This document shows, one piece after another, positions 6,334 to 26,615 of a DNA stretch of 64,000 nucleotides. This DNA is from Mycobacteriales bacterium (lineage in GTDB: Bacteria > Actinomycetota > Actinomycetes > Mycobacteriales > QHCD01). Within the stretch, counting starts at the first letter, position 1. Each line of letters opens with the position of its first letter. The DNA lies in NCBI GenBank assembly GCA_040414495.1, contig JBEDUI010000054.1:15253-79252 (forward strand). Direction: 5' to 3'. Made by a program: the position numbers and the translations under genes. The notes below the pieces were generated by a model that was not told where the DNA came from, made no database searches, and saw only the letters and a list, made by a program, of their open reading frames with translations.

Positions 6334-6399
6334 GTGAATTCACTCCCCGATCAAAGGTCTGCTGGTTGCGCTGTCAGTTGCGTGTCGAGCGAGGTGAAC

Positions 6400-6444
6400 A
6401 ACAGGCAGCGCTGCAGATGCGTAGGAAGTCCACGTAGCGTCTGG
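6400..6444. promoter_or_regulatory. conserved 45-nt element, copy 1 (core AAGTCCACGTAGCG at 6425-6438)
   Basis: 34/45 identical (manual alignment) to 7752-7796. Lies about 95 nt upstream of the SBP start. Confidence 0.4.
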
Positions 6445-6468
6445 CGGTCAGTGGCGACATTGGGCGTA

Positions 6469-7575: not shown

Positions 7576-7613
7576 GGAATTCCCTTCGTGGTGTCTGGAC
7601 ATGCGCATCACTC

Positions 7614-7656
7614 GTGCGCGCAGCGCACATCGGCGCGACTCACCACAATGTGAGTC
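7614..7656 (-). promoter_or_regulatory. two perfect inverted repeats in the 5' region of the LLM gene (GTGCGC-gca-GCGCAC; GACTCAC-n6-GTGAGTC)
   Basis: Read directly. Located 40-80 nt upstream of ATG 7575 and downstream of an AT-rich TTTATAAATAT tract (7672-7700). Confidence 0.35.
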
Positions 7657-7751
7657 CCGGCAGGAAGAACGATTTATAAATATGGCCGAGACAGATATAT
7701 TCGGTATCCGGTTGAAATAGGGCCGCGATCCCCGAATTCAGCAGGTCAGCG

Positions 7752-7796
7752 ACAGAGCGCGCTGGAGGTACGCACAAAGTCCACGTAGCGACAGGC
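7752..7796. promoter_or_regulatory. conserved 45-nt element, copy 2 (core AAGTCCACGTAGCG at 7777-7790)
   Basis: 34/45 identical to 6400-6444. About 200 nt upstream of the LLM start. Confidence 0.4.
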
Positions 7797-7910
7797 TACG
7801 AGGCGGCGGCGGCTGAATGACACGAGAAAAACGTTAACCGAGCCGCCGCAACAATGTCAATCGACACCTAGAAGTGTCCTATTCGGATCATCGCTCGTAA
7901 CGGCGTTGCT

Positions 7911-8762
7911 CTATCGGGTCAGCCGCCACAGCGTGCCGTTCCCGGTACGGTGCGCGATCGCACCGTCAGGTGGACATACGGCGCCGGTCAACAATTCCAG
8001 GTCACGAATCGTGAGGCTGCCGAACATCCGCAGCGCCTGCTCCGGCGAAAGCGCCGGTGGCCGCAACGTTATCGCCGGAGCCGCGTTGATCGCAGCTTGT
8101 TCGTACACCGAAATATGACGCCAACCCGGCACGACCCGGCGCCCGGCCGACCCCAGGAAAATCACCGTAGGCAATGCGTAACGGTGCCGTAACCCAACCT
8201 GCTTGGCCCGACCGTCATGCGGTGGCGGACCGTCCACAGTGAGCACTTCCGGGCACGGATTACGACACTGCTCCCAATCGGCCCGCACGGCATCACGAAT
8301 CGGCCGGCTGCGCAGGTCTCGCGCCAACCGATCTATATCCAGCCCATAAATATCGGATACCGAATTGAGCGCGCCATCGAGAGTGTCGGGCGGATCGCCG
8401 TCCAGGAAGGTTGTTTCCCGCAACCGACGCAGGACGCGCTCGGCCAGCACCTCACCCTGTTCCTCCGCGGCCTTGGCCGTGAGCGAAGCGGGCCAACTCG
8501 TCCGGGCCACCCGGCACAGCCGTTCCGGGATCGGAGCACCGGTCTCCTGCCCCACCCGGGCCAGAAACGCCGAATACCAAGCGGTTTCGGCCGCCGGATC
8601 CGGTGGCGGGTCCTCCGTGCTGTCGAACAGAATGCCGAATACCCGGCGCCAGTGAACCTGGTCACCCAAAGACAAGCGCAACCGGCGGAACGTCGGCTCC
8701 GATCCCCATGCCCACGGGCAAACCGGATCGGTGAACTCGAGCACCGTCAGCGGCGCGGTCAT
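7911..8762 (-). CDS. DsbA-family thioredoxin-fold protein (monothiol CPWA variant)
   Basis: Start trimmed to MTAPLTVLEFTDPVCPWAWGSEP (ATG 8762, ATGA overlap with the Rrf2 stop). DSBA-like thioredoxin fold. Confidence 0.7.
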   Translation of the reverse strand: MTAPLTVLEFTDPVCPWAWGSEPTFRRLRLSLGDQVHWRRVFGILFDSTEDPPPDPAAETAWYSAFLARVGQETGAPIPERLCRVARTSWPASLTAKAAEEQGEVLAERVLRRLRETTFLDGDPPDTLDGALNSVSDIYGLDIDRLARDLRSRPIRDAVRADWEQCRNPCPEVLTVDGPPPHDGRAKQVGLRHRYALPTVIFLGSAGRRVVPGWRHISVYEQAAINAAPAITLRPPALSPEQALRMFGSLTIRDLELLTGAVCPPDGAIAHRTGNGTLWRLTR

Positions 8763-9211
8763 TTCGCGGCGGCCACCCGGGCCCGGCGCCGCGGCCGGGA
8801 CTCGGCGTGCTGCACGGGTCCGGCGCACAGCTGGGCGATGGAGGTGTCCAGCGGCCCTTGCAACCGCTGTTCGACCGATTCCCACAGCGAGCCGAGGTGA
8901 CGCGCAGAACCGGAATATGCCAGCTCGTTGATCGGCTCGTTGCGTACGAGCAGAACATCGCCATCGACAGCCGCGATCGCGTCCGCCACGGTGATCAAGT
9001 CGGCGTCGCGGGCCAGCCAATAGCCGCCCTCGCAACCGCGCTGGCTCACAACCAGCCCGGCCTGGCGGAGTTCCTGCACGATCGACTTAAGGAAGCGGTA
9101 CGGAATCCCTTGCGCGGTGGCCATTGCCTCACAGGTCACCGGCGCCGCGTTGTCCGCAGCCAACTCGAGCAACACCCGAATCGCGTAATCAGCTTTCGCA
9201 GAAATTCGCAC
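8759..9211 (-). CDS. Rrf2-family transcriptional regulator
   Basis: Start set at GTG 9211 (V)RISAKADYAIRVLLELA, the canonical Rrf2 N-terminus. wHTH IPYRFLKSIVQELRQAGLV. Confidence 0.8.
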   Translation of the reverse strand: MRISAKADYAIRVLLELAADNAAPVTCEAMATAQGIPYRFLKSIVQELRQAGLVVSQRGCEGGYWLARDADLITVADAIAAVDGDVLLVRNEPINELAYSGSARHLGSLWESVEQRLQGPLDTSIAQLCAGPVQHAESRPRRRARVAAAK

Positions 9212-9318
9212 GGCCCCATCGTGCCCGCTGCTGCTTGACAAACGCAATTGGACCCATGCAGTGTCTATATCATCGCGACCGCGCTTCGCCGGCCACCAAA
9301 CCACTTGTAGGAGCCCGA

Positions 9319-10488
9319 GTGCCCTTTCCCGCAGGCGATGCGCGGACGTCGACGCTCCCCGAGCCGGCGTGGGACGACCTGGCCACGGTCTCGGGTCGGC
9401 TGGCCGAGCGGGCTGCCGAGCACGACGAGCGGGCCGACTTCCCAGCCGACGGAATCGAGACGGTCTGGCGGTCGGGACTGCTCACCGCGACCGTCGGGAA
9501 GCAGTACGACGGCCCGGGGGCCGGCGTGGCCAAAACCGTCGAGATCCTTGAGCAGCTGGGCCACGGTGATCCGGCGGTCGCGCTGATTTCGGCGATGACG
9601 CTTTTTCTGCACGCCGCCGAGGCGCAGCGACCGACCTGGCCGGAGCCGTACTACCGCCAATTGCTGGCCGATTCGGCCGGCAAGCCCACGCTGGTCAACA
9701 TGCTGCGCGTCGAACCCGAACTCGGCACGCCGGCCCGGGGTGGCCTGCCGGCCACCATCGCCCGCCGCAACGGCTCGGATTGGCTGCTCTCGGGCCACAA
9801 GATCTTCTCTACCGGCGCGGTCGGGTTGGATTGGATGGTGGTCTGGGCACGGACCGACACCGATCCGGTTCAGGTCGGCGGTTTCCTGGTCCGCGCCGAT
9901 TCGCCCGGCATCACGATCCGCCCGACCTGGGATCACCTTGGGTTGCGGGCCAGCCGCAGCGATGACGTGCTGTTCGCCGATACCCCGGTGCCGGGTGACG
10001 CGACGGTCGGTCTCGCCCCGGCCGGGACTCACCAGCCGCCACGTGGCGCCTGGAATTCGCTCGGTCTGGCCGCGCTTTATCTCGGCGTCGCCCGGGCCGC
10101 CCGCGATTGGCTGACCGGCTTTCTGCATGAGCGGGTGCCGACTTCCCTGGGCCAGCCGCTCGCGACATTGCCGCGCATGCAGAACGAGGTGGGCGAAATC
10201 GACGCCGCACTGATCGGCGCCCGCGATCTGGTTACTGGATTGGCCGTACGCGCCGACGCCGGCGACGAGACCGCCGTGGCGCACTCCCCGATCGCCAAAT
10301 TGATCGCCACCCGCGCCGCCATTTCCGCTGTGGAACGGGCGGTTGCGCTGGTTGGTAACAATGCGCTCACCCGAAATGCGCCTCTGCAACGCCATTTACG
10401 GGACGTGCTGTGCAGCCGGGTGCACACCCCGCAGGACGATTCGATCGTCCACGCCGCCGGCATGTCCGCCCTCTATCCGGACCGATAA
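9319..10488 (+). CDS. acyl-CoA dehydrogenase-family flavoprotein (possible SfnB/DszC-like sulfur-acquisition oxidoreductase)
   Basis: GTG 9319 preceded by GGAG. ACAD N/M/C-domain-like sequence. Context is the ssuD operon. Confidence 0.75.
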   Translation: MPFPAGDARTSTLPEPAWDDLATVSGRLAERAAEHDERADFPADGIETVWRSGLLTATVGKQYDGPGAGVAKTVEILEQLGHGDPAVALISAMTLFLHAAEAQRPTWPEPYYRQLLADSAGKPTLVNMLRVEPELGTPARGGLPATIARRNGSDWLLSGHKIFSTGAVGLDWMVVWARTDTDPVQVGGFLVRADSPGITIRPTWDHLGLRASRSDDVLFADTPVPGDATVGLAPAGTHQPPRGAWNSLGLAALYLGVARAARDWLTGFLHERVPTSLGQPLATLPRMQNEVGEIDAALIGARDLVTGLAVRADAGDETAVAHSPIAKLIATRAAISAVERAVALVGNNALTRNAPLQRHLRDVLCSRVHTPQDDSIVHAAGMSALYPDR

Positions 10489-10497
10489 GGACACCCG

Positions 10498-11226
10498 ATG
10501 TCTGTCGAAACCGCCGCGCTGTTCCGCTGGAATCCACCGTCGGCGATTACGCCGCGCGGCACGGTCGTCGTGATTCCCGGCCGGGGCGAGCATGGCGGTG
10601 TGTACGAGCGCTTCGGGCTGCGCCTGGCCGCCGACGGTTACGTGGTGACTGCGATAGCAGCCGACGGTGCGGGCGATGCGGTCGCCGACCTGATCGCGTC
10701 CGAGACTCCAGCTCCGGTCGTCTTGGCCGGTTCCGATACCGGCGCGCTGCAGGCCCTGCTCGTCGCCGCCGGTACGGATGCGGTCGCCGCCGTTATCGCC
10801 GCGGGGACTCCGACCGGGTCGGCCGTGGGCGACGCCGACTGGGAAACCGAGCTGGGCCAGCGTACGTCGTGCCCGACCCACCTGGCCCGGCTCGCCGCCG
10901 ACGCCGACCTCGGCCGCGGTGCGCTCGGGGCGGCGATCCCGGCCGAGTTGACCGACGCCGCGACCGCGGCCCGGCCCCGAGTGCCGGTCCTGTTCGTACA
11001 CGGCGCCGCCGATTCGGTGGCACCGCTGGACGGCGTCCGGGAATTAGCCGCTGTGCTGCCGGCGGCGCTGGTCGCCACCGTGCGAGATGGCCGGCACGAC
11101 GCATTCAACGATATTGCGCACCGCAGCGTCGCGGCCACCGTCGTCCAGTTCCTGGAGCGGGTCCGCGCGGATGCCAGCACGGAGCCGATCGTGACCGTCG
11201 AGTCCACCGGAGACTGGGTGGCGTGA
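10498..11226 (+). CDS. alpha/beta-hydrolase-fold protein with Asp at the nucleophile elbow
   Basis: 242 aa. IPGRGEHGG oxyanion region, elbow LAGSDTGA (D80, codon 10735-10737), C-terminal GRHDAF. Confidence 0.7.
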   Translation: MSVETAALFRWNPPSAITPRGTVVVIPGRGEHGGVYERFGLRLAADGYVVTAIAADGAGDAVADLIASETPAPVVLAGSDTGALQALLVAAGTDAVAAVIAAGTPTGSAVGDADWETELGQRTSCPTHLARLAADADLGRGALGAAIPAELTDAATAARPRVPVLFVHGAADSVAPLDGVRELAAVLPAALVATVRDGRHDAFNDIAHRSVAATVVQFLERVRADASTEPIVTVESTGDWVA

Positions 11227-12317
11227 CCCTCCGTCCACAGTGGTATCTGCCGACCTCAGGCGACGGTCGCGACATCGTCGGCTGGGTGCACGCCCGTACG
11301 GCCACCACGACGCCGCGCGACCCGGGCCGGGCGCCTGAGCTGGACTACCTGGCCCAGATCGCCGGCGCCGCCGACCGACTCGGTTTCGAATCAGTACTCA
11401 CCCCGGTCGGCACCTGGTGTGAGGATCCGTGGATCACCACGGCCGCGTTGCTGCGCGAAACCCGGCGGCTGGCGTTCATCGTCGCGCTGCGACCCGACGC
11501 CGCCACCCCGACCCTGGTCGCCCAAATGGCCGCGACCTATCAACGTTTCTCGGCCGGTCGACTGCATCTGAACGTCGTGGTCGGCAGCGATGAGGCCGAA
11601 CAGCACCGATTCGGCGACTGGCTCGAGCACGACCGCCGGTACGACCGGGCAGCGGAATTCCTGCGAATTCTGCGCGGCGCCTGGTCCGGTGATTCTTTTG
11701 ATATGCACGGCGAGCATTTCCGGGTCGCCGATGCCACCGTCGCTCATCCGCCGAGCCCACAACCGCGGATTTACCTCGGCGGCGCCTCCACCGCCGCCGT
11801 GGCGGTCGCGGCGCAGCACGCCGATGTCTATTTGATGTGGGGTGAACCGCCGGCCGCCATCGCCGAACGCATCGCGGATGTGCGGGCGAAAGCCGCCGAA
11901 CACGGCCGAACCGTTGAGTTCGGCATCCGGCTGCACGTGATCAGCCGGGACACCGCCGACGAGGCCTGGGCGCACGCCGATCGACTGCTGTCCACTGTGG
12001 ATCCGGAGGCGATCGCCGTGGCGCAGGAGCGATTCGGCCACAGCACCTCGGTCGGGCAACGCCGAATGACCGCGCTGCATGACGGCCGTACCGATTCCCT
12101 GGTGGTTTCGCCCAACCTGTGGGCCGGATTTGGCTTGGTGCGGCGGCATGCCGGCACGGCCCTGGTTGGCAGCCACGACGAGGTCGCCGACCGGTTGGCC
12201 GAATACCACGACCTCGGCGTCACCCACGTCATCCTCTCCGGACAGCCGCACCTGGAGGAGGCGTACACCGTCGCCGAAGGGCTCTTTCCCGCATTACAAC
12301 GGCGAAACCTACTGTGA
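11223..12317 (+). CDS. ssuD: FMNH2-dependent alkanesulfonate monooxygenase
   Basis: GTG 11223 (GTGA overlap). Collinear with E. coli SsuD as I recall it (WYLPTSGDG, EDPWITTAAL, LYLMWGEP, SPNLWAGFGLVR, SGQPHLEEAY). Confidence 0.85.
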   Translation: MTLRPQWYLPTSGDGRDIVGWVHARTATTTPRDPGRAPELDYLAQIAGAADRLGFESVLTPVGTWCEDPWITTAALLRETRRLAFIVALRPDAATPTLVAQMAATYQRFSAGRLHLNVVVGSDEAEQHRFGDWLEHDRRYDRAAEFLRILRGAWSGDSFDMHGEHFRVADATVAHPPSPQPRIYLGGASTAAVAVAAQHADVYLMWGEPPAAIAERIADVRAKAAEHGRTVEFGIRLHVISRDTADEAWAHADRLLSTVDPEAIAVAQERFGHSTSVGQRRMTALHDGRTDSLVVSPNLWAGFGLVRRHAGTALVGSHDEVADRLAEYHDLGVTHVILSGQPHLEEAYTVAEGLFPALQRRNLL

Positions 12318-12788
12318 ATTGCCCTCGTCGACCTCGCCGGTCGTCATGACCGGCCCGACCCAGCGCAGATCCGGCACGTTCACCACGATCGCCTCCTGAG
12401 TCGTACGGGCTATCACGACGACCGCTTCAGCATCGGTATCGGGATTCTCCTCGCGGTGTGGCACCCACGGCGGCACGAAGACGTAGTCCCCCGGCCCGGT
12501 GACGATCCGCGTTTCCTTACTCTCATCGTCCGGGTCGAGAAAGACGAAGACCGGATTCCCGCTCACCACGTAAATGGCGGTCTCCGAATGCCCGTGATGG
12601 TGATTACCCGAATTCGTCGATGCCGGGACATGCGTCTGTCCCATCCAGAGGTTCTTCGCCCCCACGGTCTTGCCGCTGATCGCCTCCAACCGCCGCATAC
12701 CCGACGTTTGAGCGGTGTCGGAGACGAGCCCCGAGGGCGCGATGTGATGCAAGCGCTGGTGAAATGCGTCGTGCGGCTCGTCGCTCAT
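12309..12788 (-). CDS. cupin-domain protein
   Basis: 159 aa. Cupin metal motif GNHHHGHSETAIYVVSG...PPWVPHRE. Last gene of the ten-gene operon. Confidence 0.75.
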   Translation of the reverse strand: MSDEPHDAFHQRLHHIAPSGLVSDTAQTSGMRRLEAISGKTVGAKNLWMGQTHVPASTNSGNHHHGHSETAIYVVSGNPVFVFLDPDDESKETRIVTGPGDYVFVPPWVPHREENPDTDAEAVVVIARTTQEAIVVNVPDLRWVGPVMTTGEVDEGNSQ

Positions 12789-14014
12789 ATGTTGTCGCTC
12801 CGTATCGTGTTTTTGCCCAATAACAGCGCCTGTGTCGTTACGGACTCGGCGAAGCTGGGGTCGTTCACGTGGGTATCAAGCAGTCTAAGCTCGATGTCCG
12901 CCCGCAGGTCTTGCTCGAGTGCCGTGACAAAGGCCGCATCGGCGACCGGATCGTGAAAAGGCTGGCCCGCCACCGAAATCTGGGAGAAGCCGCGCTGCGG
13001 CACGAGCACCGACACCGGGCCGCGGGCCCGATTCAGTTTCGCTGCCATTCGCCGGCCCAACTCGGCGCATTCCGCGGTGTTGGTGCGCAGCAGCGTGACA
13101 TTCCGGTTGTGCGCATGCAGCGTTCGGTCGCGAAATGCCGCTGGCACGGTCTCGGGCGGACCGAAGTTCACCATGTCCATAGCGCCGGGCACCACGACCT
13201 GCGGCACGCCGTGTTCGGCCGCGGCCGTGAGTCGATCCGGACCGGCCGAACACACGCCCCCCAGAAGGTCGTCGGCCAGTTCTGTTGTGGTCAGATCCAC
13301 GACGAGGTCGATTATGCCCGCGCCGATCAACGCCTCGAGCGTGCGGCCGCCGGTCCCATTGCCGGCGAACGTCACCACCTCGTAGGCGTGCTCCTCCAGT
13401 TGATGCCTGATCGCGGTGGCGGCCGTGGTCGTCACCCCGAATACCGTGATCGCCGCGACCGGCCGATTCTCCGATACGTCAAGGGAAGGACGGGTCGCCA
13501 TGCCAGCCGCCGCGGCCGCCGCATTGGCCAATACCTCGCGCGACATCCGGTTCAGACCGTTGATATCGACCACCGGATAAAGCAGCGCCAGGTCCGTCGT
13601 ACCGACATACGGCCGGGTGTCTCCCGCCGCCACGGTCGCCACCAGCAGCTTGGGTACGCCGAAAGGCAGGGTCGCCGCGACGGCCGCGAACATCACGGCT
13701 GTGTTCGACCCACCGACCGCCAGCGCGGCATCGAGCCGCCCCTCCGCGTGCAGCTGACGAGCAACCGCCGCGGCGCCGCGGGCCATCGCCGCCACCGCGG
13801 CACCCCGGTCGCCGGCCCGGACCAGATCGGCCAACGACACGCCGGCCGCGGCGGCCACCTCCTCGCGCGTCACGTCCGCCGCGATGGTCGGCGAGCCCAA
13901 CACGCCACAGTCCACAAGGGACACCTGACAGCCGTGTAACTCCACCCGTTCGCGTACGAACGCGTACTCCTCGCCCTTTGTGTCCAAGGGGCCAACGAGT
14001 ACGACCGAACTCAT
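12785..14014 (-). CDS. UPF0261 (Tm-1 N-terminal-like) ATP-binding-type protein
   Basis: 409 aa. MSSVVLVGPLDTKGEEYAFVRERV...VDCGVLG is typical of UPF0261. ATGA overlaps on both sides. Confidence 0.75.
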   Translation of the reverse strand: MSSVVLVGPLDTKGEEYAFVRERVELHGCQVSLVDCGVLGSPTIAADVTREEVAAAAGVSLADLVRAGDRGAAVAAMARGAAAVARQLHAEGRLDAALAVGGSNTAVMFAAVAATLPFGVPKLLVATVAAGDTRPYVGTTDLALLYPVVDINGLNRMSREVLANAAAAAAGMATRPSLDVSENRPVAAITVFGVTTTAATAIRHQLEEHAYEVVTFAGNGTGGRTLEALIGAGIIDLVVDLTTTELADDLLGGVCSAGPDRLTAAAEHGVPQVVVPGAMDMVNFGPPETVPAAFRDRTLHAHNRNVTLLRTNTAECAELGRRMAAKLNRARGPVSVLVPQRGFSQISVAGQPFHDPVADAAFVTALEQDLRADIELRLLDTHVNDPSFAESVTTQALLLGKNTIRSDNI

Positions 14015-15162
14015 CGCGCCATCAGGTCGTTCGGCCGGCCGAAATCGGGAACCGTAACGGCTTCCCCGCCGCGCATCGCCGAGGCGTGACCGGCAATACC
14101 CGGCGCGGTCCAGGTGGCGGCGGTTATCGCGTCGACCAACGGCGTGCGGTCCTCGACGATGCTGCGGACAAATTCATGCACCAGGTGCGGATGGGACCCC
14201 GAATGCGCGCTACCTACCTCAACCTCGGGCCGGCCGCGACCGGGGTTGTACCGGTGCGGTCGGGTAAACGGGGCGATCGGCGGAGGCAGCAGGTCGGCCC
14301 GGTCCGGCGTCGTCACCACACTCGCGGTCCCCGACCGGCCCCGTCGACCGGCGACCTGCGGCCGCAACTCGAAAAGCGTGAACTCGTCCTCGTTCGCTAT
14401 TTGCGGCCATTCCAGGCCCCGGTCCTGCCCGTAAACGCTGAAACCCTCCTGGTATTTACGCGCCACCTGGAAGAAGCTCACCGTCACCTCGGCCACCAGA
14501 TCGTCCCGATCAAGTTGGAACAACGCGGTCTGGAGTGGATACGGGTTGTCGAAGTCGCCGACCCGGTCCTGAGTTAGCCGGCCCGAACCCATTCCGTGTG
14601 CCTTCAGCACGCGGGCACCGGCCAGGGCCAGTAGCGGTGAAAGGGCGTGTGTGGAATACGTCATCGGCGGATATCCCCACCAGTAGCGGGGATATCCATC
14701 GAGATCTTGGATATGCGTACCGCGCAGGTAGGTCAGCGGGCCCAATTCGCCGCGTCGGTGCAGGTCTCGGGCATACAGAAATTCCCGACCGAAGACCATG
14801 GTCTCCATCATCATGTACCGCTTACCGGAATCCTGCTGCGCGGCGATGATCTGCTCGATCCCGTCGATACTCGTGGCCATCGGTACCGCGCAGGCAGCGT
14901 GCCGGCCACTACGTAATACCGCCACGACCTGCTCGACGTGGAAACGCACCGGGGTGGCTATATGCACGGCGTCGTATCCGTCGCTGGCCAGCAATTCCTC
15001 GATGCTGGCGAATCGATCGTCCACACCGTACCGATCGGCAACCTCGTCCCGTACCGCCGGATCGAGGTCGACCACGCCGACCCGGCCCACGTCAGGATGG
15101 CTCCGGTAGATCGGCAGGAATTCGCTCCCGAACCGCGCCCCCACCACCGCGACGTCGATCAT
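14011..15162 (-). CDS. Gfo/Idh/MocA-family NAD(P)-dependent oxidoreductase
   Basis: 383 aa. N-terminal Rossmann MIDVAVVGARFGSEF. Confidence 0.8.
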   Translation of the reverse strand: MIDVAVVGARFGSEFLPIYRSHPDVGRVGVVDLDPAVRDEVADRYGVDDRFASIEELLASDGYDAVHIATPVRFHVEQVVAVLRSGRHAACAVPMATSIDGIEQIIAAQQDSGKRYMMMETMVFGREFLYARDLHRRGELGPLTYLRGTHIQDLDGYPRYWWGYPPMTYSTHALSPLLALAGARVLKAHGMGSGRLTQDRVGDFDNPYPLQTALFQLDRDDLVAEVTVSFFQVARKYQEGFSVYGQDRGLEWPQIANEDEFTLFELRPQVAGRRGRSGTASVVTTPDRADLLPPPIAPFTRPHRYNPGRGRPEVEVGSAHSGSHPHLVHEFVRSIVEDRTPLVDAITAATWTAPGIAGHASAMRGGEAVTVPDFGRPNDLMAR

Positions 15163-15476
15163 GCCTGCACCGGAATCACGGTCTGTACCTCACCGTAGAG
15201 AAATGTAACCCCGCCGGTGGCGAAATTCTCCAGGTCCGCCGTGGATGCCCGCCCCTCCGGGGAATCGAAGATCGCCAGCAGCGCGTCCCGGCTGGGCGCA
15301 TACAGCTCGGCGATCAGATAGTACGGGCTTGGTCCCTCGCCCGGATCGACTTTCGTGATCGTCCAGCCGGTGAGGCCGCGCATCTTCCGCGCGATCGGAA
15401 TGTGGACCGAGTCGTAATACGAGTCGAAATGCTGCGGGTCCTTGGGGTGTCCATAAAGGATCGTCGCTTTGTACAT
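15159..15476 (-). CDS. EthD-family protein
   Basis: 105 aa. MYKATILYGHPKDPQHFDSYYDSVHIPIA is an EthD/TIGR02118-like signature. Confidence 0.75.
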   Translation of the reverse strand: MYKATILYGHPKDPQHFDSYYDSVHIPIARKMRGLTGWTITKVDPGEGPSPYYLIAELYAPSRDALLAIFDSPEGRASTADLENFATGGVTFLYGEVQTVIPVQA

Positions 15477-15479
15477 CGG

Positions 15480-16307
15480 TCAGCCTCCCAGCGGCAGCTC
15501 GACGAACCTGCGCATGTGTTCGGTCATCGCCACCTCGGTGGGCAGCCTTTCCATACTGGAGGCGCCGAGAAATCCGTGAATTCCCGGCACCTCGGCCAGC
15601 ACCCGCGCCGCATCGTCCGGCGTCGCGATCGGTCCACCGTGGGCGAAGATGAAGCTGTCCGCGTTGGTCGATCGCGCCGCATCCCGGATCCGGCCGACGA
15701 ACTCGATCGCCTCGTCCAACGACAGCGCGGTTTTCGCGCCTATCGTCCCCGACGTGGTCAATCCAGCATGCGCCACGACCGCGTCCGCGCCGGCCGCCGC
15801 CATAGCGCGGGCCTCGTCCTCGTCGTGTACGTATGCGACGGTCAGCAGGTCCAACTCGCGGGCCGAGGCGATCAGCTCCACCTCTTTGTCGAAGCCCAGT
15901 CCGGTCTCCTCGAGATTGGCCCGGATAATGCCGTCGAACAGGCACACGGTCGGGTAGTTCTGCACACCGGCACAGCCAAGCTCCTTCAGCTGACGCAGGA
16001 AATACGGAATTACGCGGAATGGATCCGTACCGCAGACACCGGCGACCACCGGAACCGTGTCCACCACCGGCAGCGTCTCGGTCGCCATTTCCCAGACGAT
16101 CTGGTTCGCATCGCCGTAAGGCATGAGTCCGGCCATCGAGCTGCGACCGGCCATGCGGTACCGCCCGGAGTTGTAAATCACGACGAAATCCAGACCAGCC
16201 GCCTCGGCGCACTTCGCCGAGATGCCGACTCCGGCTCCACCGCCGATGATCGGTCGTCCGGCGGCGACCTTGGACCGGAACGATTCCAGGATGTGCTGCC
16301 GAGTCAT
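15480..16307 (-). CDS. phosphoenolpyruvate-hydrolase-like TIM-barrel protein (Tm-1 C-terminal-like)
   Basis: 275 aa. PIIGGGAGVGISAKCAEAAGLDFVVIYNSGRYRMAG...GVQNYPTV. Confidence 0.75.
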   Translation of the reverse strand: MTRQHILESFRSKVAAGRPIIGGGAGVGISAKCAEAAGLDFVVIYNSGRYRMAGRSSMAGLMPYGDANQIVWEMATETLPVVDTVPVVAGVCGTDPFRVIPYFLRQLKELGCAGVQNYPTVCLFDGIIRANLEETGLGFDKEVELIASARELDLLTVAYVHDEDEARAMAAAGADAVVAHAGLTTSGTIGAKTALSLDEAIEFVGRIRDAARSTNADSFIFAHGGPIATPDDAARVLAEVPGIHGFLGASSMERLPTEVAMTEHMRRFVELPLGG

Positions 16308-16317
16308 GAAACGCCTT

Positions 16318-17184
16318 TCATTTCACGGCGCCGCTGAGCATGCCCTGCATCAGGCGGCGCTGACTGAAGATGAACAACACCAGTACGGGCAATGTGATCA
16401 GCACGCCTAACGCCATCAAGTGTCCCCATTCGGTGCCGTAGAGCGTGGTTTGCAACGCCAGCATCGCACCGACCGGATAAGCGTCCGGTTTGGACAGGAA
16501 CGTTGTGCCGTACAACAGCTCGCCCCAGGACTGCATGAAGATCATGATCGCGACCGTGATGATTCCGTTGCGAGCCAACGGCATCACCACTCTGGCGAAG
16601 ACCGACCAGATCGAGGCGCCGTCCATCGTCGCCGCCTCCTCCAATTCGACCGGCACACCGAGGAAAAAGGGACGGATCAGCAATATCGCGAACGGCAGCA
16701 CCATTGCGCTGGTGGCCAGCACGATGCCGAAGATCGTATTGGTCAGGTGCCATTGGGCGAGAATGCTGTACAGCGGCATGATCGTCATTGCCTGCGGAAC
16801 CATCTGCAGCACAATCAGCAGCCCCAACGTCACCGCGATGATCCGCGCCCACACCCGATTACGTCGGCGGGCCAACGCATACGACGCGGGGACGGCCACG
16901 GCGAGTGTCAGTACGGTTGTCCCGATGCCGATCTGCAGCGAGTTGAGCATGGCCGGCCACACCTGCCCGACCACACCGCGGTACTGGGCCAGCGTCGGGG
17001 TGAACGTCAGCCCGGACGGATTTTTCAGAATCGCGGATTCGGGCTTGAACGACGTGGCCAGCACCCACAACAGCGGAATTCCGTAGAGCAGGAAGATAAT
17101 GACACGCCCGATGCGCGGGCCGACACCCTGCCGATCGTGGACCGAAACCGCCGCCCGGCGGCGGGTAGCGAGCGAGCTGGCCAC
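16318..17184 (-). CDS. carbohydrate ABC transporter permease (CUT1, MalG-like)
   Basis: 288 aa, 6 TM, EAA loop LEEAATMDGAS. Confidence 0.85.
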   Translation of the reverse strand: MASSLATRRRAAVSVHDRQGVGPRIGRVIIFLLYGIPLLWVLATSFKPESAILKNPSGLTFTPTLAQYRGVVGQVWPAMLNSLQIGIGTTVLTLAVAVPASYALARRRNRVWARIIAVTLGLLIVLQMVPQAMTIMPLYSILAQWHLTNTIFGIVLATSAMVLPFAILLIRPFFLGVPVELEEAATMDGASIWSVFARVVMPLARNGIITVAIMIFMQSWGELLYGTTFLSKPDAYPVGAMLALQTTLYGTEWGHLMALGVLITLPVLVLFIFSQRRLMQGMLSGAVK

Positions 17185-17185
17185 C

Positions 17186-18109
17186 TCAGGCCTCCTTCCG
17201 GCTGGCCCGTAAATAGGCGAGCCCCAGCGCGGCGACCATGATCATGGACAAGATTGCCTCAACCGCTCCCCGGCCGAAGTCGAACTTGATGAACGCGTCC
17301 CGATAGGACAGATACGGCAGCGTGGTAGTGGTCGTGCCCGGCCCGCCGTGCGTGACGACGTAGATGTAATCGAAACTGCGGAAGCCGTACATCATGTTGA
17401 GGATCGTGAGAATAAGGAATGTCGGTCGCAGCAGCGGCAGAACGATCCGAACCCGGGTCTGCCAGCGGCTCGCGCCGTCCACCGCGGCCGCGTCGAGCAG
17501 TTCGGTCGGGATATTCAGCAGCGCCGCCCGGAATAGCACCACCGACAGAGGCAGGCTCGCCCAGCACGCGATCAACGAGACCGTCCAGATCGATAGCTGG
17601 GCGCTGCCGAGCCAGTTCACCGCACCCAGGCCAACCTCGCCGAGGAGCTTGTTGACGAAACCGTTGTCGGCAAACAGAAACCGCCAGATATTGCCCACCA
17701 CGGCCGAGGGCAGCGCCCAGACGAACACCATCAGCGCCTGCACGAACCGCGCATCCAGCGACCGGTAGGAAAGCCACGACGCGAAGACGAAACCCAGCGC
17801 CAGGTCCACCACCGTGACGCCGGCGGTGAAATAGACAGTGGTCTTGAGCGATCCCCAGAATTCGGCCGATGACAATACGGGCCCGAAGTTGTGGAAACCC
17901 ACCCAGTGCCAGCCGCTGAGCAGGTTGGTCGGGCCGACGTCGGAGAACGCCATGCGAATGAGCGTGATCAGCGGGTACAGCGAGAACACGACCAGCAGTG
18001 CCACCGCCGGCCCTAAAAACCACACCATCCCAGTGCGCCGTCGGCGCGGCCGCCGGATCGCGATTGATCCGCGCCGTGGCGGTGCCGAAAGCTCAAGGTC
18101 AGCAGCCAC
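17186..18109 (-). CDS. carbohydrate ABC transporter permease (CUT1, MalF-like)
   Basis: 307 aa, EAA loop LLDAAAVDGAS. Confidence 0.85.
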   Translation of the reverse strand: MAADLELSAPPRRGSIAIRRPRRRRTGMVWFLGPAVALLVVFSLYPLITLIRMAFSDVGPTNLLSGWHWVGFHNFGPVLSSAEFWGSLKTTVYFTAGVTVVDLALGFVFASWLSYRSLDARFVQALMVFVWALPSAVVGNIWRFLFADNGFVNKLLGEVGLGAVNWLGSAQLSIWTVSLIACWASLPLSVVLFRAALLNIPTELLDAAAVDGASRWQTRVRIVLPLLRPTFLILTILNMMYGFRSFDYIYVVTHGGPGTTTTTLPYLSYRDAFIKFDFGRGAVEAILSMIMVAALGLAYLRASRKEA

Positions 18110-19379
18110 CGCCGCCCTCCCGGAAATCCTGGTGAATGCGCTTGATTGCTTCCCGGGCCGCCCTGCCCGGCCCGTACGCGCCGGCCAACATATTGCTCTG
18201 GATAACGCCCAGATCCGTTTGCGCGTCCAGTGTCTTGGTGTTGTTCGGCCAGGGCATCAGGTGTTGCGGCTCGAGTTCGGTGACAAAGGGCGTTGAGATG
18301 GTGCTCTTGGTGATTTCCGGCGCTTTACGTGCGTCCAAGCGGGACGGGATCGCGCCCGAGGCCTGATAGGTGGCGATTTGGCCCTGCTTGGACATGAATG
18401 CGGTCTCGATGTATTTCCAGGCCGCATCCTTGTGCTTGCTGAAGGCGCCCATCGCGATGGACTCACCGGCGAACGAAACGTGGCTGCCGGCCTTGCCGGC
18501 AGGCATTATCGAGCTTCCCACCGTGAATTTGGGCTTGGCCTGGGCCAGGATCGGCGCTTCCCAGCTGCCGCCTTCGGCGAAGGCGTACTGCCCCGTGAGG
18601 AACCGCATGAATGCGTCGTTCATATTGAGCGTGGAGACGTCCGGCGGCAGATAGCCCTTCTTGCGCCAGCCGTCCACCATGGAAAAGACCTTGGCGGTGT
18701 CCGGCGAGTCAATGTTGCAGTAGTTCACGCCCTGGGCGAGCAACCACATCACGAACATCCAGGTGCTCTGCACGGTGGCGTCGCCGGACAGCGCAATACC
18801 TTTGTATTTTCCGCTCTTGGTGACGATTGCCATGTCGCGGTTGAGCTCATCCAACGTCGTCGGCGGTCGGAGGTGGAACTGGTCCAGAATGGTCTTGTTG
18901 TACCAGAAGCCCAGGTCGTTGAAGCGCCACTGCAGCTCCAACAACTTCTTGTCTTTTTTCCACAGACCGGCGGCCGGATAGACCTTGCGTACCGGGGACG
19001 CGTTCCAGTATTTCGAAATATCGGCGTAGGCGCCACCGGCCGCGGTCAGCGGGAAGTCGACCACCGGATTGCCGACGATCACGTCCGGCCCGTCGCCCTC
19101 GCCGGCGGCCGCGACCAGCTTCGGACCGAAATTATTCATGTCGACGTTGGCCTGCCGAACAATGATGTTCGGATACTTCTTCGCAAAGATCGCATTCAGC
19201 TGGGCGAACGATGGATCGTTGCCGACGTCCGACCAGAGCACGATCGTTGTTTTGCCTTTGGGCGTGTGGTCGAAGGCGTACGACGTGACGACGCAACTCG
19301 ACAGCAGCGTCGCGAGTACCGCGAGCAGGACCGACGCCAGCACCCGCCGGCGTGGCCGGGTCGCCCGGATGTACGACAC
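18099..19379 (-). CDS. extracellular solute-binding lipoprotein (sugar ABC, family 1)
   Basis: Start set at GTG 19379 (GGAGGA 8 nt upstream; the track start 19418 is possible). Lipobox LLSSC. Confidence 0.8.
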   Translation of the reverse strand: MSYIRATRPRRRVLASVLLAVLATLLSSCVVTSYAFDHTPKGKTTIVLWSDVGNDPSFAQLNAIFAKKYPNIIVRQANVDMNNFGPKLVAAAGEGDGPDVIVGNPVVDFPLTAAGGAYADISKYWNASPVRKVYPAAGLWKKDKKLLELQWRFNDLGFWYNKTILDQFHLRPPTTLDELNRDMAIVTKSGKYKGIALSGDATVQSTWMFVMWLLAQGVNYCNIDSPDTAKVFSMVDGWRKKGYLPPDVSTLNMNDAFMRFLTGQYAFAEGGSWEAPILAQAKPKFTVGSSIMPAGKAGSHVSFAGESIAMGAFSKHKDAAWKYIETAFMSKQGQIATYQASGAIPSRLDARKAPEITKSTISTPFVTELEPQHLMPWPNNTKTLDAQTDLGVIQSNMLAGAYGPGRAAREAIKRIHQDFREGGGGC

Positions 19380-19401
19380 CGAGAATTCCTCCGAATAGGG
19401 T

Positions 19402-20517
19402 TTAGTGCGCGGCGGCACGATCCCGACGGGCCAACTCGCTCTGAACGGCCGGGATCAAATGCCGGCCGTAATCGATGGCGTCGTCGAGCGGATCGAATCC
19501 GCGAATCAGGATCGATGTGACCCCGAGATCAATGTAGTCCAGGATTGCCTGGCCCACGGTCTCCGGTGTCCCCACCAGAGCAGTCGTGTTACCCGAGGCA
19601 TTTGTCGCCGCAGCCGTGGGCGTCCACAGTGCCCGGTCGTGGAGCTCGCCTTTTTCCGCCGCAGCCAACAGTCGCTGCGCCGCGACCGACTGCGGTGCGG
19701 CTTTGGTGCCACCCACCAGCGCCGCCGAGGAGACGAACGACCCTTTGCCGCCGCCGCTGGACCGGATTGTGTCCAGAATGCTATGGGCCCGCTCCCACGC
19801 CTGCTCCTCGGTCGCACCGAGGATCGGCCGGAACGAGACCGAGAAACGCGGCGCCGTGGCCCGACCGGCAGCCTCGGCCGCCTGACGCACCGCGGCGATC
19901 TGCTCAGCCGTCTGCGCCAGCGGTTCGCCCCAGAGCATGAAAACGTCGCTCTGCTTACCGCCGACACGATAGGCGGCTGGCGAAGAACCGCCGAAATACA
20001 GGGGAATGCGAGGCGACTGCGCCGGCAGCACGTCGCTGCGGAAATCCTCGAACCGATAATGCTTACCGCGATAGCTGAACGGATCCACGCTGGTCCAGGC
20101 CGATTTCAGTACGTCAAGGTATTCGTCGGTCCGCTCGTACCGCTCATCCTTGGACAGGAAATCACCCTCGCGTCGCTGGTCGGCGTCGCTCCCGCCAGTG
20201 ATGATGTGCACCGCGACCCGGCCGCCGGTGAATTGGTCCAGCGTGGCGAAGGTCCGCGCCGCCAACGTCGGGAAGACAAACCCCGGCCGATGCGCCACCA
20301 GGAAACCAAGCCGCTCTGTCTGCGATGCCGCGTACGCCGTGACCTGCGCACCGTCCGGAGAGGACGATCCATATCCAACCAGTACCTTCGAAAAACCGCC
20401 GTCCTCGTGGGCACGCGCAATTCGGGCAACGAAATCGGGCTGGATTACGGGTCCCTGCCGAGCGCGGATCTCGGACACCTCGTGGGTGCCAATCATTCCG
20501 ATGAATTCAACTGACAC
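19402..20517 (-). CDS. LLM-class FMNH2-dependent monooxygenase (alkanesulfonate-monooxygenase-like), paralog 2
   Basis: GTG 20517 with RBS GGAGGGA. MSVEFIGMIGTHEVSE aligns with MTSEILGMVGTKEVSE of 6469-7575. Confidence 0.8.
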   Translation of the reverse strand: MSVEFIGMIGTHEVSEIRARQGPVIQPDFVARIARAHEDGGFSKVLVGYGSSSPDGAQVTAYAASQTERLGFLVAHRPGFVFPTLAARTFATLDQFTGGRVAVHIITGGSDADQRREGDFLSKDERYERTDEYLDVLKSAWTSVDPFSYRGKHYRFEDFRSDVLPAQSPRIPLYFGGSSPAAYRVGGKQSDVFMLWGEPLAQTAEQIAAVRQAAEAAGRATAPRFSVSFRPILGATEEQAWERAHSILDTIRSSGGGKGSFVSSAALVGGTKAAPQSVAAQRLLAAAEKGELHDRALWTPTAAATNASGNTTALVGTPETVGQAILDYIDLGVTSILIRGFDPLDDAIDYGRHLIPAVQSELARRDRAAAH

Positions 20518-20556
20518 GTGAGGTCCCTCCGCGCAATTACGGTCAGACGGAAGATA

Positions 20557-20580
20557 GTACTAGCCAGTACAGAACGCAAG
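20557..20580. promoter_or_regulatory. candidate TetR operator: GTACT-agcc-AGTAC dyad plus AGTACAGAACG
   Basis: Lies between the TetR stop and the LLM start. AGTACA(R)AACG recurs at 21242-21252, upstream of the TetR gene. Confidence 0.3.
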
Positions 20581-20590
20581 GCTGACGAGA

Positions 20591-21232
20591 TCAGCGGGAG
20601 GGCACCCGAAAGCTGCGCAGATGGCCAATCGCCATCGCCAGCGCGTCCCGCAACGGCGTAACGTCCCGGCGTACGCGCGCCAATAACAATCCGCCTTGCA
20701 CGGCCGCCATCGTCGCCGAGGCCAGCGACGTCGGATCGGCATTCGCGCGCAGCTCGCCCCGGTTCTGCAAGGAGACCAGGCCGCGCTCCAGATAGGACTG
20801 CCACACCGAGAATGCCTCCGCGAGGTGCGCCCGCAACTCGTCTTCGGAATCCACCTCACGCGCAAAGCTGCCCAGCCGGCACGGCAGCGGACCATCATCA
20901 GTGCTGTGCCGGGCCAACAAGCCCGAGGCCCAGGCGTCGAAATCGGCCCAGGTCGTAATGCCGTGCAAACCCGGCTGACTCGCCAACACCTGGTCGAGCT
21001 GGTAGCCGATCACCGCCCGGACCAGGTCCTGCTTGTTGTTGAAGTAGTGGTAAAGCTGCGACTTACCGGCGCCGCAATAGGCCAGCACCTCATCCAGGCT
21101 CGTGGTCGCGATTCCCCGCTCGTACATCAACGCGGCCGCCGCCTCCACAATCGCCGCGCGACTGCGTCGGCCGCGGGCCGTGGCCGGCAGCCGGTCAACC
21201 GGCAGCTGAGCAGGCGTCCCCAATTGACTCAT
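20591..21232 (-). CDS. TetR-family transcriptional regulator
   Basis: 213 aa. HTH RGIATTSLDEVLAYCGAGKSQLYHYF. Confidence 0.85.
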   Translation of the reverse strand: MSQLGTPAQLPVDRLPATARGRRSRAAIVEAAAALMYERGIATTSLDEVLAYCGAGKSQLYHYFNNKQDLVRAVIGYQLDQVLASQPGLHGITTWADFDAWASGLLARHSTDDGPLPCRLGSFAREVDSEDELRAHLAEAFSVWQSYLERGLVSLQNRGELRANADPTSLASATMAAVQGGLLLARVRRDVTPLRDALAMAIGHLRSFRVPSR

Positions 21233-21303
21233 GGACTAGAGAGTACAAAACGAAGTCCAGCCAGAGCCAGACGATCCTCAGCAACAAACCTGATCGGCTC
21301 GCG

Positions 21304-23176: not shown

Positions 23177-23422
23177 GTGGGACAAACGGTGCAGGTCGTC
23201 GGTTCTGTGTTGGTACTGGCCGCTTTCGCCGCCGCGCAGCGCGGTTGGCTGAACGCCAAGTCCACGATTTATCTGGTGTTGAACCTGATCGGTTCGGCGG
23301 TGCTGTCGGTCGAGGCCGTACTGGAGCGGCAGTGGGGATTCCTGCTCCTTGAGGGCGTCTGGGCGATCGTGTCGGCGGCCGGCCTGATCGCGGCACTTCG
23401 CCGCCGCGCGGTTGCGAATTGA
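23177..23422 (+). CDS. small 3-TM membrane protein (not SMR architecture)
   Basis: 81 aa, GTG start, SD AAGGGAG. TM3 FLLLEGVWAIVSAAGL carries a membrane-embedded Glu. Confidence 0.65.
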   Translation: MGQTVQVVGSVLVLAAFAAAQRGWLNAKSTIYLVLNLIGSAVLSVEAVLERQWGFLLLEGVWAIVSAAGLIAALRRRAVAN

Positions 23423-24777: not shown

Positions 24778-26139
24778 CTAATCGGCCGGGCCGTCCGAAC
24801 CGGCTGGATATTCCCTGAGCGGCACCAGGTTTCGCGACCACGCGGAAAGTACCGGCGCCACGACTCTCCACGACTCTTCGGCCTCGTCGCCGCGGATAGA
24901 CAGAGCCGGATCGCCGTTCAGTACGTCAAGCAGCAGCCTTCCGTACGGAGGCAATTCGGGTGTCGCCAGTTGCGCGGTCAGCCGGAGCGGGGCGAACGTC
25001 CGCGCGCGGGCGCCGGTCCCGGTCAGGTCGAGCGTCAGGGTTTCCGGGTCGAGGCCGAAGCGCAGGATATTGGGCAGGACGTCCCCGCTGTGTCCGAACG
25101 GCATGTGTGGCACCGATCGGAAATGTACGGTGACCTCTTTCCGATCGTCGCCGAGCGCTTTACCACTGCGTAGTCGGAACTTCGTTCCGGCCCATCGCCA
25201 ATTGTCGAGTTCCAGGTCCATCTCGGCGTATGTTTCGGTGCCGCGATTCGGGTCCACTCCCTCTTCGTCGCGGTAGGCGGGGATTTCATGGTCACCGATA
25301 CGGCCCGCACCATAACGGCCCCGGCGCGTGCGATGTCGTACGTCGTTATCTGTGAGGGGACGCACGGACCGCAATACGTCGACTTTCCGGTCCCGTAGGT
25401 CGCGCTCGCCGAGGCTTATCGGCGGTTCCATCGCTACCAGGCAGAGCAATTGCAGCAGGTGATTCTGCACCATGTCCTTGAGTGCCCCGGCGCCGTCGTA
25501 ATATCCAGCCCTGCCCTCGAGCGTGAGGCGCTCGTCCCAGACAATCTCTACCTCGGAAATATGGGCGCTGTTCCACAGTGGCTCGAGCACCCGGTTGGCC
25601 AGCCGGCTGCCGAGCACATTCTCGACAGTCGTCATGGCCAGAAAATGGTCGACCCGGAAAACAGCGTCCTCGGGCGCCACATCAGCCAACAGCCGATTCA
25701 GCTCGATCGCACTGGCCAGGTCCACGCCAAACGGCTTTTCCAGCACGATCCGGCTGCCCGGCGGCAGGCCCGCCTCATGCAGCGTGTCTACGGCGCGCGA
25801 GAACAGCGCCGGCGGCAGCGCGAGGTAGACGGCGACGGGCCGGTCATCACCGGAGATGATCGACGCGACATCGGCGACCTGGGTGATATCCGCGCGCCGA
25901 AAGCTGGCCGATGCCGCGATGGCTTTGCCCGCATCGACCGGCCACGCGTCGGCATAACGGTCGAGCTGTGCGCTGACCCAGGACTGGAACTGATCATTGG
26001 TCCGCTCACCGCGGTCAGCGCAGGTCAACTCGAACTGGTCGGTGAGCTGCCCGGCCGCTCGCAGGGCAACCAGGCCGGGCAACAAATACCGCGCGCTGAG
26101 GTCGCCGGTGCCACCGAAAATAGCTAGCCGATCGATCAT
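24778..26139 (-). CDS. glucose-6-phosphate-dehydrogenase-family protein (divergent Zwf paralog)
   Basis: 453 aa. GGTGDLSARYLLPGL, EKPFG, RVDHFLAMTTVENVLG (canonical RIDHYLGKE lost its GKE), MVQNHLLQLLCLVAMEPP. Confidence 0.85.
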   Translation of the reverse strand: MIDRLAIFGGTGDLSARYLLPGLVALRAAGQLTDQFELTCADRGERTNDQFQSWVSAQLDRYADAWPVDAGKAIAASASFRRADITQVADVASIISGDDRPVAVYLALPPALFSRAVDTLHEAGLPPGSRIVLEKPFGVDLASAIELNRLLADVAPEDAVFRVDHFLAMTTVENVLGSRLANRVLEPLWNSAHISEVEIVWDERLTLEGRAGYYDGAGALKDMVQNHLLQLLCLVAMEPPISLGERDLRDRKVDVLRSVRPLTDNDVRHRTRRGRYGAGRIGDHEIPAYRDEEGVDPNRGTETYAEMDLELDNWRWAGTKFRLRSGKALGDDRKEVTVHFRSVPHMPFGHSGDVLPNILRFGLDPETLTLDLTGTGARARTFAPLRLTAQLATPELPPYGRLLLDVLNGDPALSIRGDEAEESWRVVAPVLSAWSRNLVPLREYPAGSDGPAD

Positions 26140-26615
26140 GTCGCCGCTCCTTCGGCTCGAGCTAGGTTGCGGACTTAGATACGCCGAGATCTCACTACGC
26201 CAATCTGGCGCGAAATAGCAGGATTTCTAGAGCGTAATGAAACAGGATCGCAAACTCTCTTCATAACTACTTTCATCCGCCATCATCGCCTCACACCCGT
26301 ATCTGACGGCTTCCGCGACCTCAGCGGAGGGCAACACGCAACGATACTGGTGTCCCGGGAGGCTGACCGCAAATCGGCCGCACGCTACTGGCATTACATT
26401 TCAGTGTCGAAATATCACCGTACGCCGGGACAAAATTAACCGGATATCGCCCAGGCCGCGCGCAAGGCAGACAGAGTCGGTCCTGGCCGGCGCGCCGGTG
26501 CGCGCAAACCCGCTTAAAGTGAGGGCTGTCCGTCGCCAGCTGCGTAAAGCCCGCGTTGAAATTCAGATTAAGTCCACTAATGGCGAACATTGTCGGGAAT
26601 CTGGAGGGAAAGCTG

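Follow-up and report, generated by a model that had tools for sequence, protein, structure and literature searches.

What is an operon for that joins a flavin-dependent monooxygenase, a sugar-type ABC importer and the two halves of the plant protein Tm-1? The question is raised by ten genes on the minus strand (12309–21232) of a 64,000-nucleotide stretch of DNA from an uncultured soil bacterium of the Mycobacteriales (contig JBEDUI010000054.1), which is called the window below. An earlier note on this stretch proposed a catabolic or desulfonation pathway for a sulfonated or otherwise modified sugar, by analogy with the oxidative route for sulfoquinovose. The reading favored here, to which we give slightly less than an even chance, is that of a substrate-inducible uptake-and-oxidation operon in which the monooxygenase and a cupin would carry out sulfur-type chemistry on a carbohydrate-like compound.

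The ten-gene operon is real and tightly packed. The open reading frames (ORFs), the Pfam families and the junction sequences agree with the coordinates, the gene order and the coupling that had been described. The first gene encodes a TetR-family repressor (20591–21232; TetR_N and TetR_C_13). It is followed by a luciferase-like monooxygenase (LLM; 19402–20517; Bac_luciferase, 8e-72), predicted to be an enzyme of the SsuD clade which uses reduced flavin mononucleotide (FMNH2), and by a CUT1-type substrate-binding lipoprotein (SBP) with the lipobox LSSC (18099–19379, or to 19418 for the longest ORF; SBP_bac_8 and SBP_bac_1). Then come permease 1, which is UgpA/MalF-like (17186–18109; BPD_transp_1, UgpA 2.5e-34), and permease 2, which is GlcU/MalG-like (16318–17184; BPD_transp_1, GlcU 3e-30). 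The TIM barrel of family PF09370 corresponds to the C-terminal half of Tm-1 (15480–16307; PEP_hydrolase 8e-117, PDB 2P10 3e-96). The next genes encode an EthD-family dimeric alpha/beta-barrel protein (15159–15476; EthD, TIGR02118) and a non-canonical Gfo/Idh/MocA protein (GFO; 14011–15162; Rossmann N-domain by Pfam) which has AVP in place of EKP. UPF0261, the N-terminal half of Tm-1, is present with both domains (12785–14014; PF06792 and PF23189), and the last gene encodes a cupin whose metal motif comprises three His and one Glu (12309–12788; Cupin_2).

The EthD/GFO, GFO/UPF0261 and UPF0261/cupin junctions are ATGA overlaps, which can be read literally in the sequence. The SBP and permease 1 genes overlap by 11 nt, GTGGCTGCTGA, and the same overlap is present in two related loci, L002 and L009; with the permease 1 start chosen by one gene caller (18028), there is no such overlap. 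The other gaps from the LLM gene onward measure 22, 1, 10 and 3 nt. The first of these values assumes the SBP start at 19379, taken from an independent gene call, and becomes a 17-nt overlap with the LLM gene if the longest ORF (19418) is used. The TetR and LLM genes are 73 nt apart. The same protein set was found on an independently assembled Logan contig, which confirms the sequence, and the gene order is kept in L002 and L009 at 77–91% protein identity; the arrangement is therefore beyond chance. The SBP and the two MalF/MalG-type permeases make up a CUT1 importer according to Pfam and NCBIfam. Neither an ABC ATPase nor a flavin reductase is encoded among the ten ORFs (Pfam). The CUT1 systems of actinobacteria usually have their ATPase gene outside the operon.

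The LLM had been taken for a sulfonate-type monooxygenase. From its sequence, it is a relative of SsuD but not of the sulfonate type: it belongs to a subfamily with a rebuilt substrate pocket (Ser-x-Arg, Thr, Asp-Pro). Its best solved relatives are MsuD (5e-54), SsuD (4e-42) and SmoC (9e-33), and it scores 214 bits against the NCBIfam SsuD equivalog TIGR03565, whose cut-off is 518. The sulfonate-binding motif of MsuD consists of W195, R225, R296 and A/S299, and the R296A variant is inactive (PMC8234197). In SsuD numbering (HMMER and MAFFT), the LLM carries R226S, H228R, R297T, Y331F, H333P and C54S and keeps W196, while the replacement of A300 by Ser agrees with S299 of MsuD itself. Ser226, Arg228 and Pro333 are invariant across the 120 closest database homologues, and Thr297 is found in 110 of the 120; the pocket is therefore distinct and conserved, not decayed. 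The residues which bind the FMN phosphate in MsuD (R126, Y127, S177 and S178; their roles are described in PMC8234197) are kept, and the alignment with 7JV3 shows the ERY and GGSS motifs to be conserved as well. The LLM is thus most probably a two-component FMNH2 enzyme.

How close is the locus to the sulfoquinovose route? The smoA-I cluster of Agrobacterium tumefaciens, which encodes the sulfoquinovose monooxygenase (sulfo-SMO) pathway (PMC8795539), resembles the operon in that a single regulated cluster encodes a CUT1 importer, a two-component flavin monooxygenase related to SsuD, and an oxidoreductase. If the operon worked in this way on sulfoquinovose or another sulfonated sugar, the LLM would free sulfite and the GFO protein would reduce the keto- or aldo-sugar. 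The nearest characterised relatives of the LLM are indeed sulfonate monooxygenases, the importer is of the same CUT1 type as SmoE-H, and the LLM is a sulfur-poor protein in a sulfur-related context. However, from the SmoC constellation Trp206-Arg236-His238-Tyr341-His343 (PMC8795539) the LLM keeps the Trp alone, which is also, Ser300 apart, what is left of the MsuD motif. It is 33–36% identical to each of SsuD, MsuD and RoSmoC, the 33% to RoSmoC being no closer than its identity to SsuD, and the phylogeny by which the earlier note wished to place it against SmoC and SsuD puts it in a clade of its own, together with a paralogue from the window, LLM3.

The rest of the smo gene set is also poorly matched. 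Neither a sulfoquinovosidase (GH31) nor a flavin reductase came up when the operon and most of the other genes predicted in the window were scanned with Pfam, which gave no hit to Glyco_hydro_31, Flavin_Reduct or FMN_red. The oxidoreductase is a non-canonical GFO protein, not of the SmoB type, and is absent from L002, and the operon has PF09370, EthD, UPF0261 and cupin genes in addition. The closest solved relatives of the SBP are generic CUT1 proteins (1e-16 or weaker). Its match to SmoF is partial (1e-9) and ranks 12th among solved binding proteins, too distant for a reliable mapping of Thr220, Gly166 and Ser43, which recognise the sulfonate in SmoF. On account of the active-site residues, the phylogeny and the missing genes, the analogy with the sulfo-SMO pathway is rejected, and we regard oxidative desulfonation of a sulfonated sugar as very improbable.

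The rebuilt pocket has a precedent of another kind. SfnG, a relative of SsuD, needs no basic residues to bind its substrate, a neutral sulfone (PMC11588060); with this example, the loss of the Arg pair in the LLM is compatible with non-sulfonate organosulfur chemistry. The pair is lost in both proteins. At 136 bits against 383, however, the LLM is no orthologue of SfnG. One basic residue which is missing from the SfnG cage is still present in the LLM, whose pocket is otherwise its own.

The context of the family leads in the same direction. Orthologues of the LLM (69–71% identity) in Streptomyces, Kitasatospora and metagenomes lie beside an Opp/GsiB-type importer and further LLMs, and their clusters (L004, L006, L097, L098) also carry an SfnB-like protein with the acyl-CoA-dehydrogenase (ACAD) fold, a Hydrolase_4 protein, an SsuD-like LLM and FMN/flavin reductases. 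Cys and Met make up 0.5% of the LLM, compared to a median of 2.3% in the window; LLM2, LLM3 and Hydrolase_4 of the flanking genes, described below, as well as the EthD protein and the cupin of the operon, are similarly sulfur-poor. The operon thereby resembles the sulfur-starvation systems ssu, msu and sfn (SsuD, MsuD, SfnG, MsuC/SfnB, SsuE/MsuE), with which it shares the LLM clade, the FMN-phosphate residues, a sulfur-poor LLM and, through the LLM orthologues, the company of an SsuD-like LLM, an SfnB-like ACAD-fold protein and flavin reductases. It differs from them in lacking the sulfonate Arg pair, in NCBIfam scores far below the cut-offs, in having a sugar-type importer in place of SsuABC or TauABC, and in being under TetR control.

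A gene set which resembles the Streptomyces clusters around the LLM orthologues also adjoins the operon, at 1043–12317 of the window. Convergent with the operon, a plus-strand operon (9124–12317; Pfam and SsuD model) encodes an SfnB-like ACAD-fold protein (9124–10488), Hydrolase_4 (10498–11226) and LLM2 (11223–12317), whose 3' end overlaps that of the cupin gene by 9 nt. LLM2 is a canonical SsuD-like monooxygenase, which reaches 432 bits on the SsuD model (cut-off 518) and keeps C54, W196, R226, H228, R297 and H333. With these residues, the real candidate for an alkanesulfonate monooxygenase at this locus lies just outside the operon. A second neighbouring operon, on the minus strand (1043–9035), encodes a DsbA-like thioredoxin (7911–9035), LLM3 (6469–7611), which is 47% identical to the LLM of the operon and has the same altered pocket, and an Opp/GsiB-like importer made of an SBP (4816–6333), two permeases and two ATPases. 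The family context of the LLM and the cupin, the flanking cluster and the low Cys and Met content of the LLM and its neighbours all point to a link with sulfur. The sulfur theme of the earlier note thus has support from context that it had not used, and its sulfonate-type specificity does not.

How do Tm-1-like genes come to stand in such company? Scans centred on PF09370 returned 4 loci in genomes (strict single-protein patterns) and 80 in metagenomes, 84 in total, and neighbours were counted in the 47 loci that span 5 kb or more. In 37 of these 47, the gene just before PF09370 is UPF0261. In the metagenome loci L012–L091, where PF09370 identity is 57–67%, only the partnership with UPF0261 persists. 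The pair is there most often preceded by a LivK-type (Peripla_BP_6/BPD_transp_2) importer and followed by a Cupin_2 protein of about 134 amino acids, which suggests that most UPF0261–PF09370 pairs act on non-sugar small molecules. LLM, EthD, GFO and CUT1 genes are found near PF09370 only in the closest relatives.

Comparison of these loci indicates that the operon is a mosaic, fused from two older gene units. Unit A consists of TetR, LLM and cupin. Unit B occurs by itself in Arthrobacter castelli DSM 16402 (L011) and in a Chloroflexia metagenome-assembled genome (L010), where a ROK gene precedes SBP-permease-permease-UPF0261-PF09370-EthD-GFO; no LLM, TetR or cupin gene is present in these two loci, and the flanks of L010 hold nothing relevant. 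The two units are fused in four related contigs only, the window, L002, L009 and L096. L002 has the order TetR-LLM-SBP-permease-permease-PF09370-EthD-cupin, without GFO and UPF0261; L009 is similar, with a GFO gene and an inverted cupin gene, and also lacks UPF0261; in L096 the cupin gene is divergent and TetR-LLM-UPF0261 follow one another with no importer between. The LLM, TetR and cupin genes are linked to Tm-1-like genes in every variant. This linkage, which persists through different arrangements, argues for a functional connection, while the variable gene content indicates that GFO and UPF0261 are dispensable. Of the neighbourhood whose conservation the earlier note had wished to see checked, TetR-LLM-(importer)-PF09370-EthD-cupin does recur, but only that part, and only within a narrow group of Mycobacteriales.

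In L011, the stretches noted beside Unit B (578–2705 and 11994–19585) hold the two DDE transposase genes that flank it and, on the other strand beyond Unit B, a canonical GFO together with a GH20 hydrolase, another CUT1 importer and a sulfatase, possibly a locus for a sulfated amino sugar.

As previously stated, UPF0261 corresponds to one half of plant Tm-1 and PF09370 to the other, and both domains are complete here (PDB 3WRY at 9e-70, 2P10 at 3e-96). The accompanying statement that they have no established biochemical role in bacteria is outdated: since 2025 a kinase role has been proven for one UPF0261 protein, MarK from Novosphingobium aromaticivorans (crystal structure 9MPY), which phosphorylates phenolic hydroxyls with ATP, forming ADP (PMC12624787). 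The UPF0261 protein of the operon matches this structure at 1.8e-73, has the two-subdomain architecture of MarK and tomato Tm-1 (3WRY), and keeps the Asp-Thr-Lys ATP motif. In contrast, from the acceptor pocket of MarK (G195, T196, H219, F283, I285, H304, H348) it keeps G195 and H304 only. T196, F283, I285 and H348 differ, and its position 217 is Ala where His219 of MarK forms a hydrogen bond with the phosphoryl-acceptor oxygen. His occupies this position in 40 of 40 relatives from related loci, in MarK and in Tm-1.

The other invariant columns of UPF0261 are intact (29 of 30), and it is not rare for a protein of the compared set to carry one substitution of its own; we therefore read the change from His to Ala as a specific alteration or loss of function rather than general decay. 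Relaxed selection on the whole protein was considered but is not supported, since a single invariant column out of 30 is changed and other members of the family deviate at least as often. A MarK-like role as a phenolic kinase was rejected in view of the unconserved pocket, the loss of His219 and the absence of acvCDEF/hpe carboxylase genes from the operon and the neighbouring genes (Pfam).

The position of the gene is also unusual. MarK acts alone, and most UPF0261 genes lie directly upstream of PF09370. In the canonical arrangement, the UPF0261 gene comes right before PF09370 or the two are fused; here, UPF0261 is downstream, with EthD and GFO between. It is missing from the sister operons L002 and L009, both of which retain PF09370. 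UPF0261 is thus displaced in this operon, and probably accessory or kinase-inactive. On the contrary, the PF09370 protein keeps 63 of 63 family-invariant residues, as does that of L009, which has no UPF0261 partner, and it is probably the active core enzyme of the cassette. The sole solved relative of PF09370 is the uncharacterised Mll9387 (PDB 2P10), and nothing was found in the literature on the function of PF09370, Mll9387 or TBST. The EthD gene comes after PF09370 in L002 and in L008–L011, which makes it a constant partner in this actinobacterial/Chloroflexia group. Judging from these alignments and gene orders, PF09370 and EthD form the conserved core of the cassette in this lineage and the Tm-1-like pair does not work as in canonical loci. 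The idea of the pair acting together as enzymes is thus not supported, in view of both the lost His and the sister operons.

These observations bear on whether the two units share a substrate at all. They might simply have become co-transcribed after a rearrangement beside a sulfur island, with UPF0261 and GFO as decaying relics. The variable gene content of the four related loci and the His-to-Ala change in UPF0261 would fit such a history, and there are signs of mobility and decay elsewhere: Unit B of L011 is flanked by the two DDE transposase genes, and Streptomyces oceani (L094, 5891–11134) has a decayed cassette with a ROK gene, an intact GFO gene, no PF09370 and a UPF0261 gene split into fragments (7628–7813 and 8593–9216). 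However, the 4-nt and 11-nt overlaps imply translational coupling, LLM, TetR and cupin have stayed linked to Tm-1-like genes through at least four arrangements, and the invariant residues of PF09370 (all 63) and UPF0261 (all but one) have been retained. We consider that units without a common substrate are an improbable explanation.

The GFO protein had been called a sugar dehydrogenase, a label which is not secure on sequence grounds. In its subfamily, 120 of 120 homologues have AVP at the place of the catalytic EKP motif, whereas the second GFO of L011 has EKP, and its solved relatives match the Rossmann domain only (about 1e-12). The gene is accessory, as its absence from L002 shows. Its orthologues often adjoin a cupin gene (L093, L095, L099) or a gene for a small LLM (L092, L099).

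The cupin has an intact His/His/Glu...His metal motif and belongs to a family which is 70–90% conserved across many actinobacterial genera. Cupin orthologues (60–75%) adjoin LLM orthologues in L006, L096 and L098, and one is paired with a GFO orthologue in Actinopolymorpha (L093). Sequence comparison, and a Foldseek search with an AlphaFold2 model (mean pLDDT 62, core 80–90), assigned no subfamily and returned generic cupins only (HppE, quercetinase, oxalate oxidase, CDO, DddQ, at about 1e-5).

Could the operon serve plain carbon catabolism? The compound would then be a sulfur-free sugar, glycoside or cyclitol, the LLM a recruited hydroxylase or Baeyer-Villiger-type oxygenase, and the GFO protein, the TIM barrel, EthD, the cupin and UPF0261 would oxidise, isomerise, phosphorylate and cleave it, in the way that a dehydrogenase, a TIM barrel, a cupin and a kinase serve inositol catabolism. 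Unit B has a ROK regulator at its side in L010 and L011, a GH63-like hydrolase gene lies directly upstream of TetR in L002, the Unit B proteins have a normal Cys and Met content, the LLM has no sulfonate site, and the operon combines TetR control with the absence of any sulfur-responsive element, all of which agrees with this explanation. It accounts less well for the pocket, which is the same across an LLM clade whose other members are found in sulfur-acquisition-type clusters with peptide-type importers, clusters with which the cupin travels too. Nor does it sit well with a GFO subfamily without the catalytic Lys of EKP, with a UPF0261 protein without its invariant His, or with the fact that both are dispensable in the sister operons. 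Carbon catabolism alone seems to us unlikely, though it deserves to be kept in view.

How would the operon be controlled? A scan for GTAC-N6-GTAC gave 3 matches at 2 sites, compared to 0.56 expected. The operator-like palindrome GTACTCTCTAGTCC (21233–21246, minus strand) lies directly upstream of the TetR start codon, and GTACTGGCTAGTAC (20557–20570, minus strand) lies within the 73-nt gap between TetR and LLM. Palindromes are present at the same two positions in L002 (5680 and 6330), L009 (5711) and L096 (2077 and 2952), although the flanking sequence has diverged; those at 6330, 5711 and 2952 are in the TetR–LLM gap. In these three loci, TetR orthologues with 66–82% identity precede the LLM gene. 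The pair of candidate operators, conserved in four loci, suggests that TetR is probably an autoregulated repressor, and that the nine structural genes have a separately repressed promoter. The operator pair is a new observation, from which we infer that TetR would bind there. Scans for sigma-70 promoter and terminator consensus sequences gave hits at chance level only.

In the favored reading, uptake and oxidation would thus proceed as follows. TetR would bind the two GTAC-N6-GTAC sites, one at its own promoter and one before LLM, and be released by the substrate or an intermediate. The SBP and the two permeases would import a polar carbohydrate-like compound with the help of a shared ATPase encoded elsewhere. 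The LLM would oxygenate this compound with O2 and FMNH2, the latter supplied by an unlinked flavin reductase, most likely by cleaving or oxidising a non-sulfonate C–S function such as a sulfone, sulfoxide, sulfinate or thioether. The cupin would work in the same substrate line, and the carbon skeleton would be processed by PF09370 and EthD, with GFO and the His-less UPF0261 as dispensable accessories in this lineage. Unit A would normally work with an Opp/GsiB-like importer, in actinobacterial clusters of the sulfur-acquisition type.

Several observations weigh against this assignment. The LLM subfamily, the cupin family, PF09370, the EthD group and the GFO subfamily have no member with a known reaction, so that all the chemical steps are inferred. 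With its new invariant Arg (position 228) and W196, the LLM might after all accept an anionic substrate. The Unit B proteins are normal or high in Cys and Met, Unit B is ROK-regulated elsewhere, and the GH63-like gene precedes TetR in L002. The operon has no sulfur regulator and no sulfur-responsive element such as an S-adenosylmethionine riboswitch (the Rfam scan of the operon was empty), and a TetR regulator fits carbon catabolism as well. The adjacency to the sulfur cluster could reflect an origin of the LLM by local duplication, and the LLM and cupin neighbourhoods which were inspected number about a dozen.

A narrower version of this reading assigns the operon to the salvage of sulfur from a non-sulfonate glycosidic or sugar-like organosulfur compound, for example a methylthio- or methylsulfonyl-sugar, a thioglycoside or a mycothiol-derived pseudo-disaccharide. 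The LLM and the cupin would carry out the C–S chemistry, while PF09370 and EthD would degrade the sugar part. In such detail the proposal is doubtful, and we give it a low probability. If true, it would provide the first physiological pathway context for PF09370.

Other genes of the window were noted in passing. A Guanidine-III riboswitch (RF01763; 23090–23158, plus strand; 48.8 bits, gathering score 36) is found a short way upstream of a small CBU_0592-like ORF (23177–23422) and is unrelated to the operon. Genes for glucose-6-phosphate dehydrogenase and an Edd/IlvD-type dehydratase (24778–28355), a few kb upstream of the operon, and for a SulP sulfate permease with a STAS domain (44670–46394) have no evident link to it.

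Taken together, the locus resembles in outline the systems which combine an importer with a two-component monooxygenase (smo, ssu), and it lacks the features which define SsuD/MsuD, the SMO pathway, MarK-type kinases and canonical Gfo/Idh/MocA dehydrogenases. The best description is that of an operon for scavenging or catabolism, controlled by a repressor and built from uncharacterised subfamilies.

Five families without a known reaction, namely the Ser-x-Arg/Thr/Pro clade of LLMs, its cupin partner, PF09370, the EthD group and the AVP-type GFO proteins, are widespread in soil Actinobacteria. In the operon they are tied to a single importer and to a single repressor whose operator can be recognised, and this makes the locus a tractable entry point: the ligands of the SBP and of TetR would name the substrate. 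The operon also indicates that UPF0261 and PF09370 can be uncoupled. JGI pipelines currently annotate the LLM clade as 'alkanesulfonate monooxygenase', a name which should not be given to it. With this clade, the chemistry of sulfur-scavenging flavoenzymes would reach further than sulfonates and dimethylsulfone.

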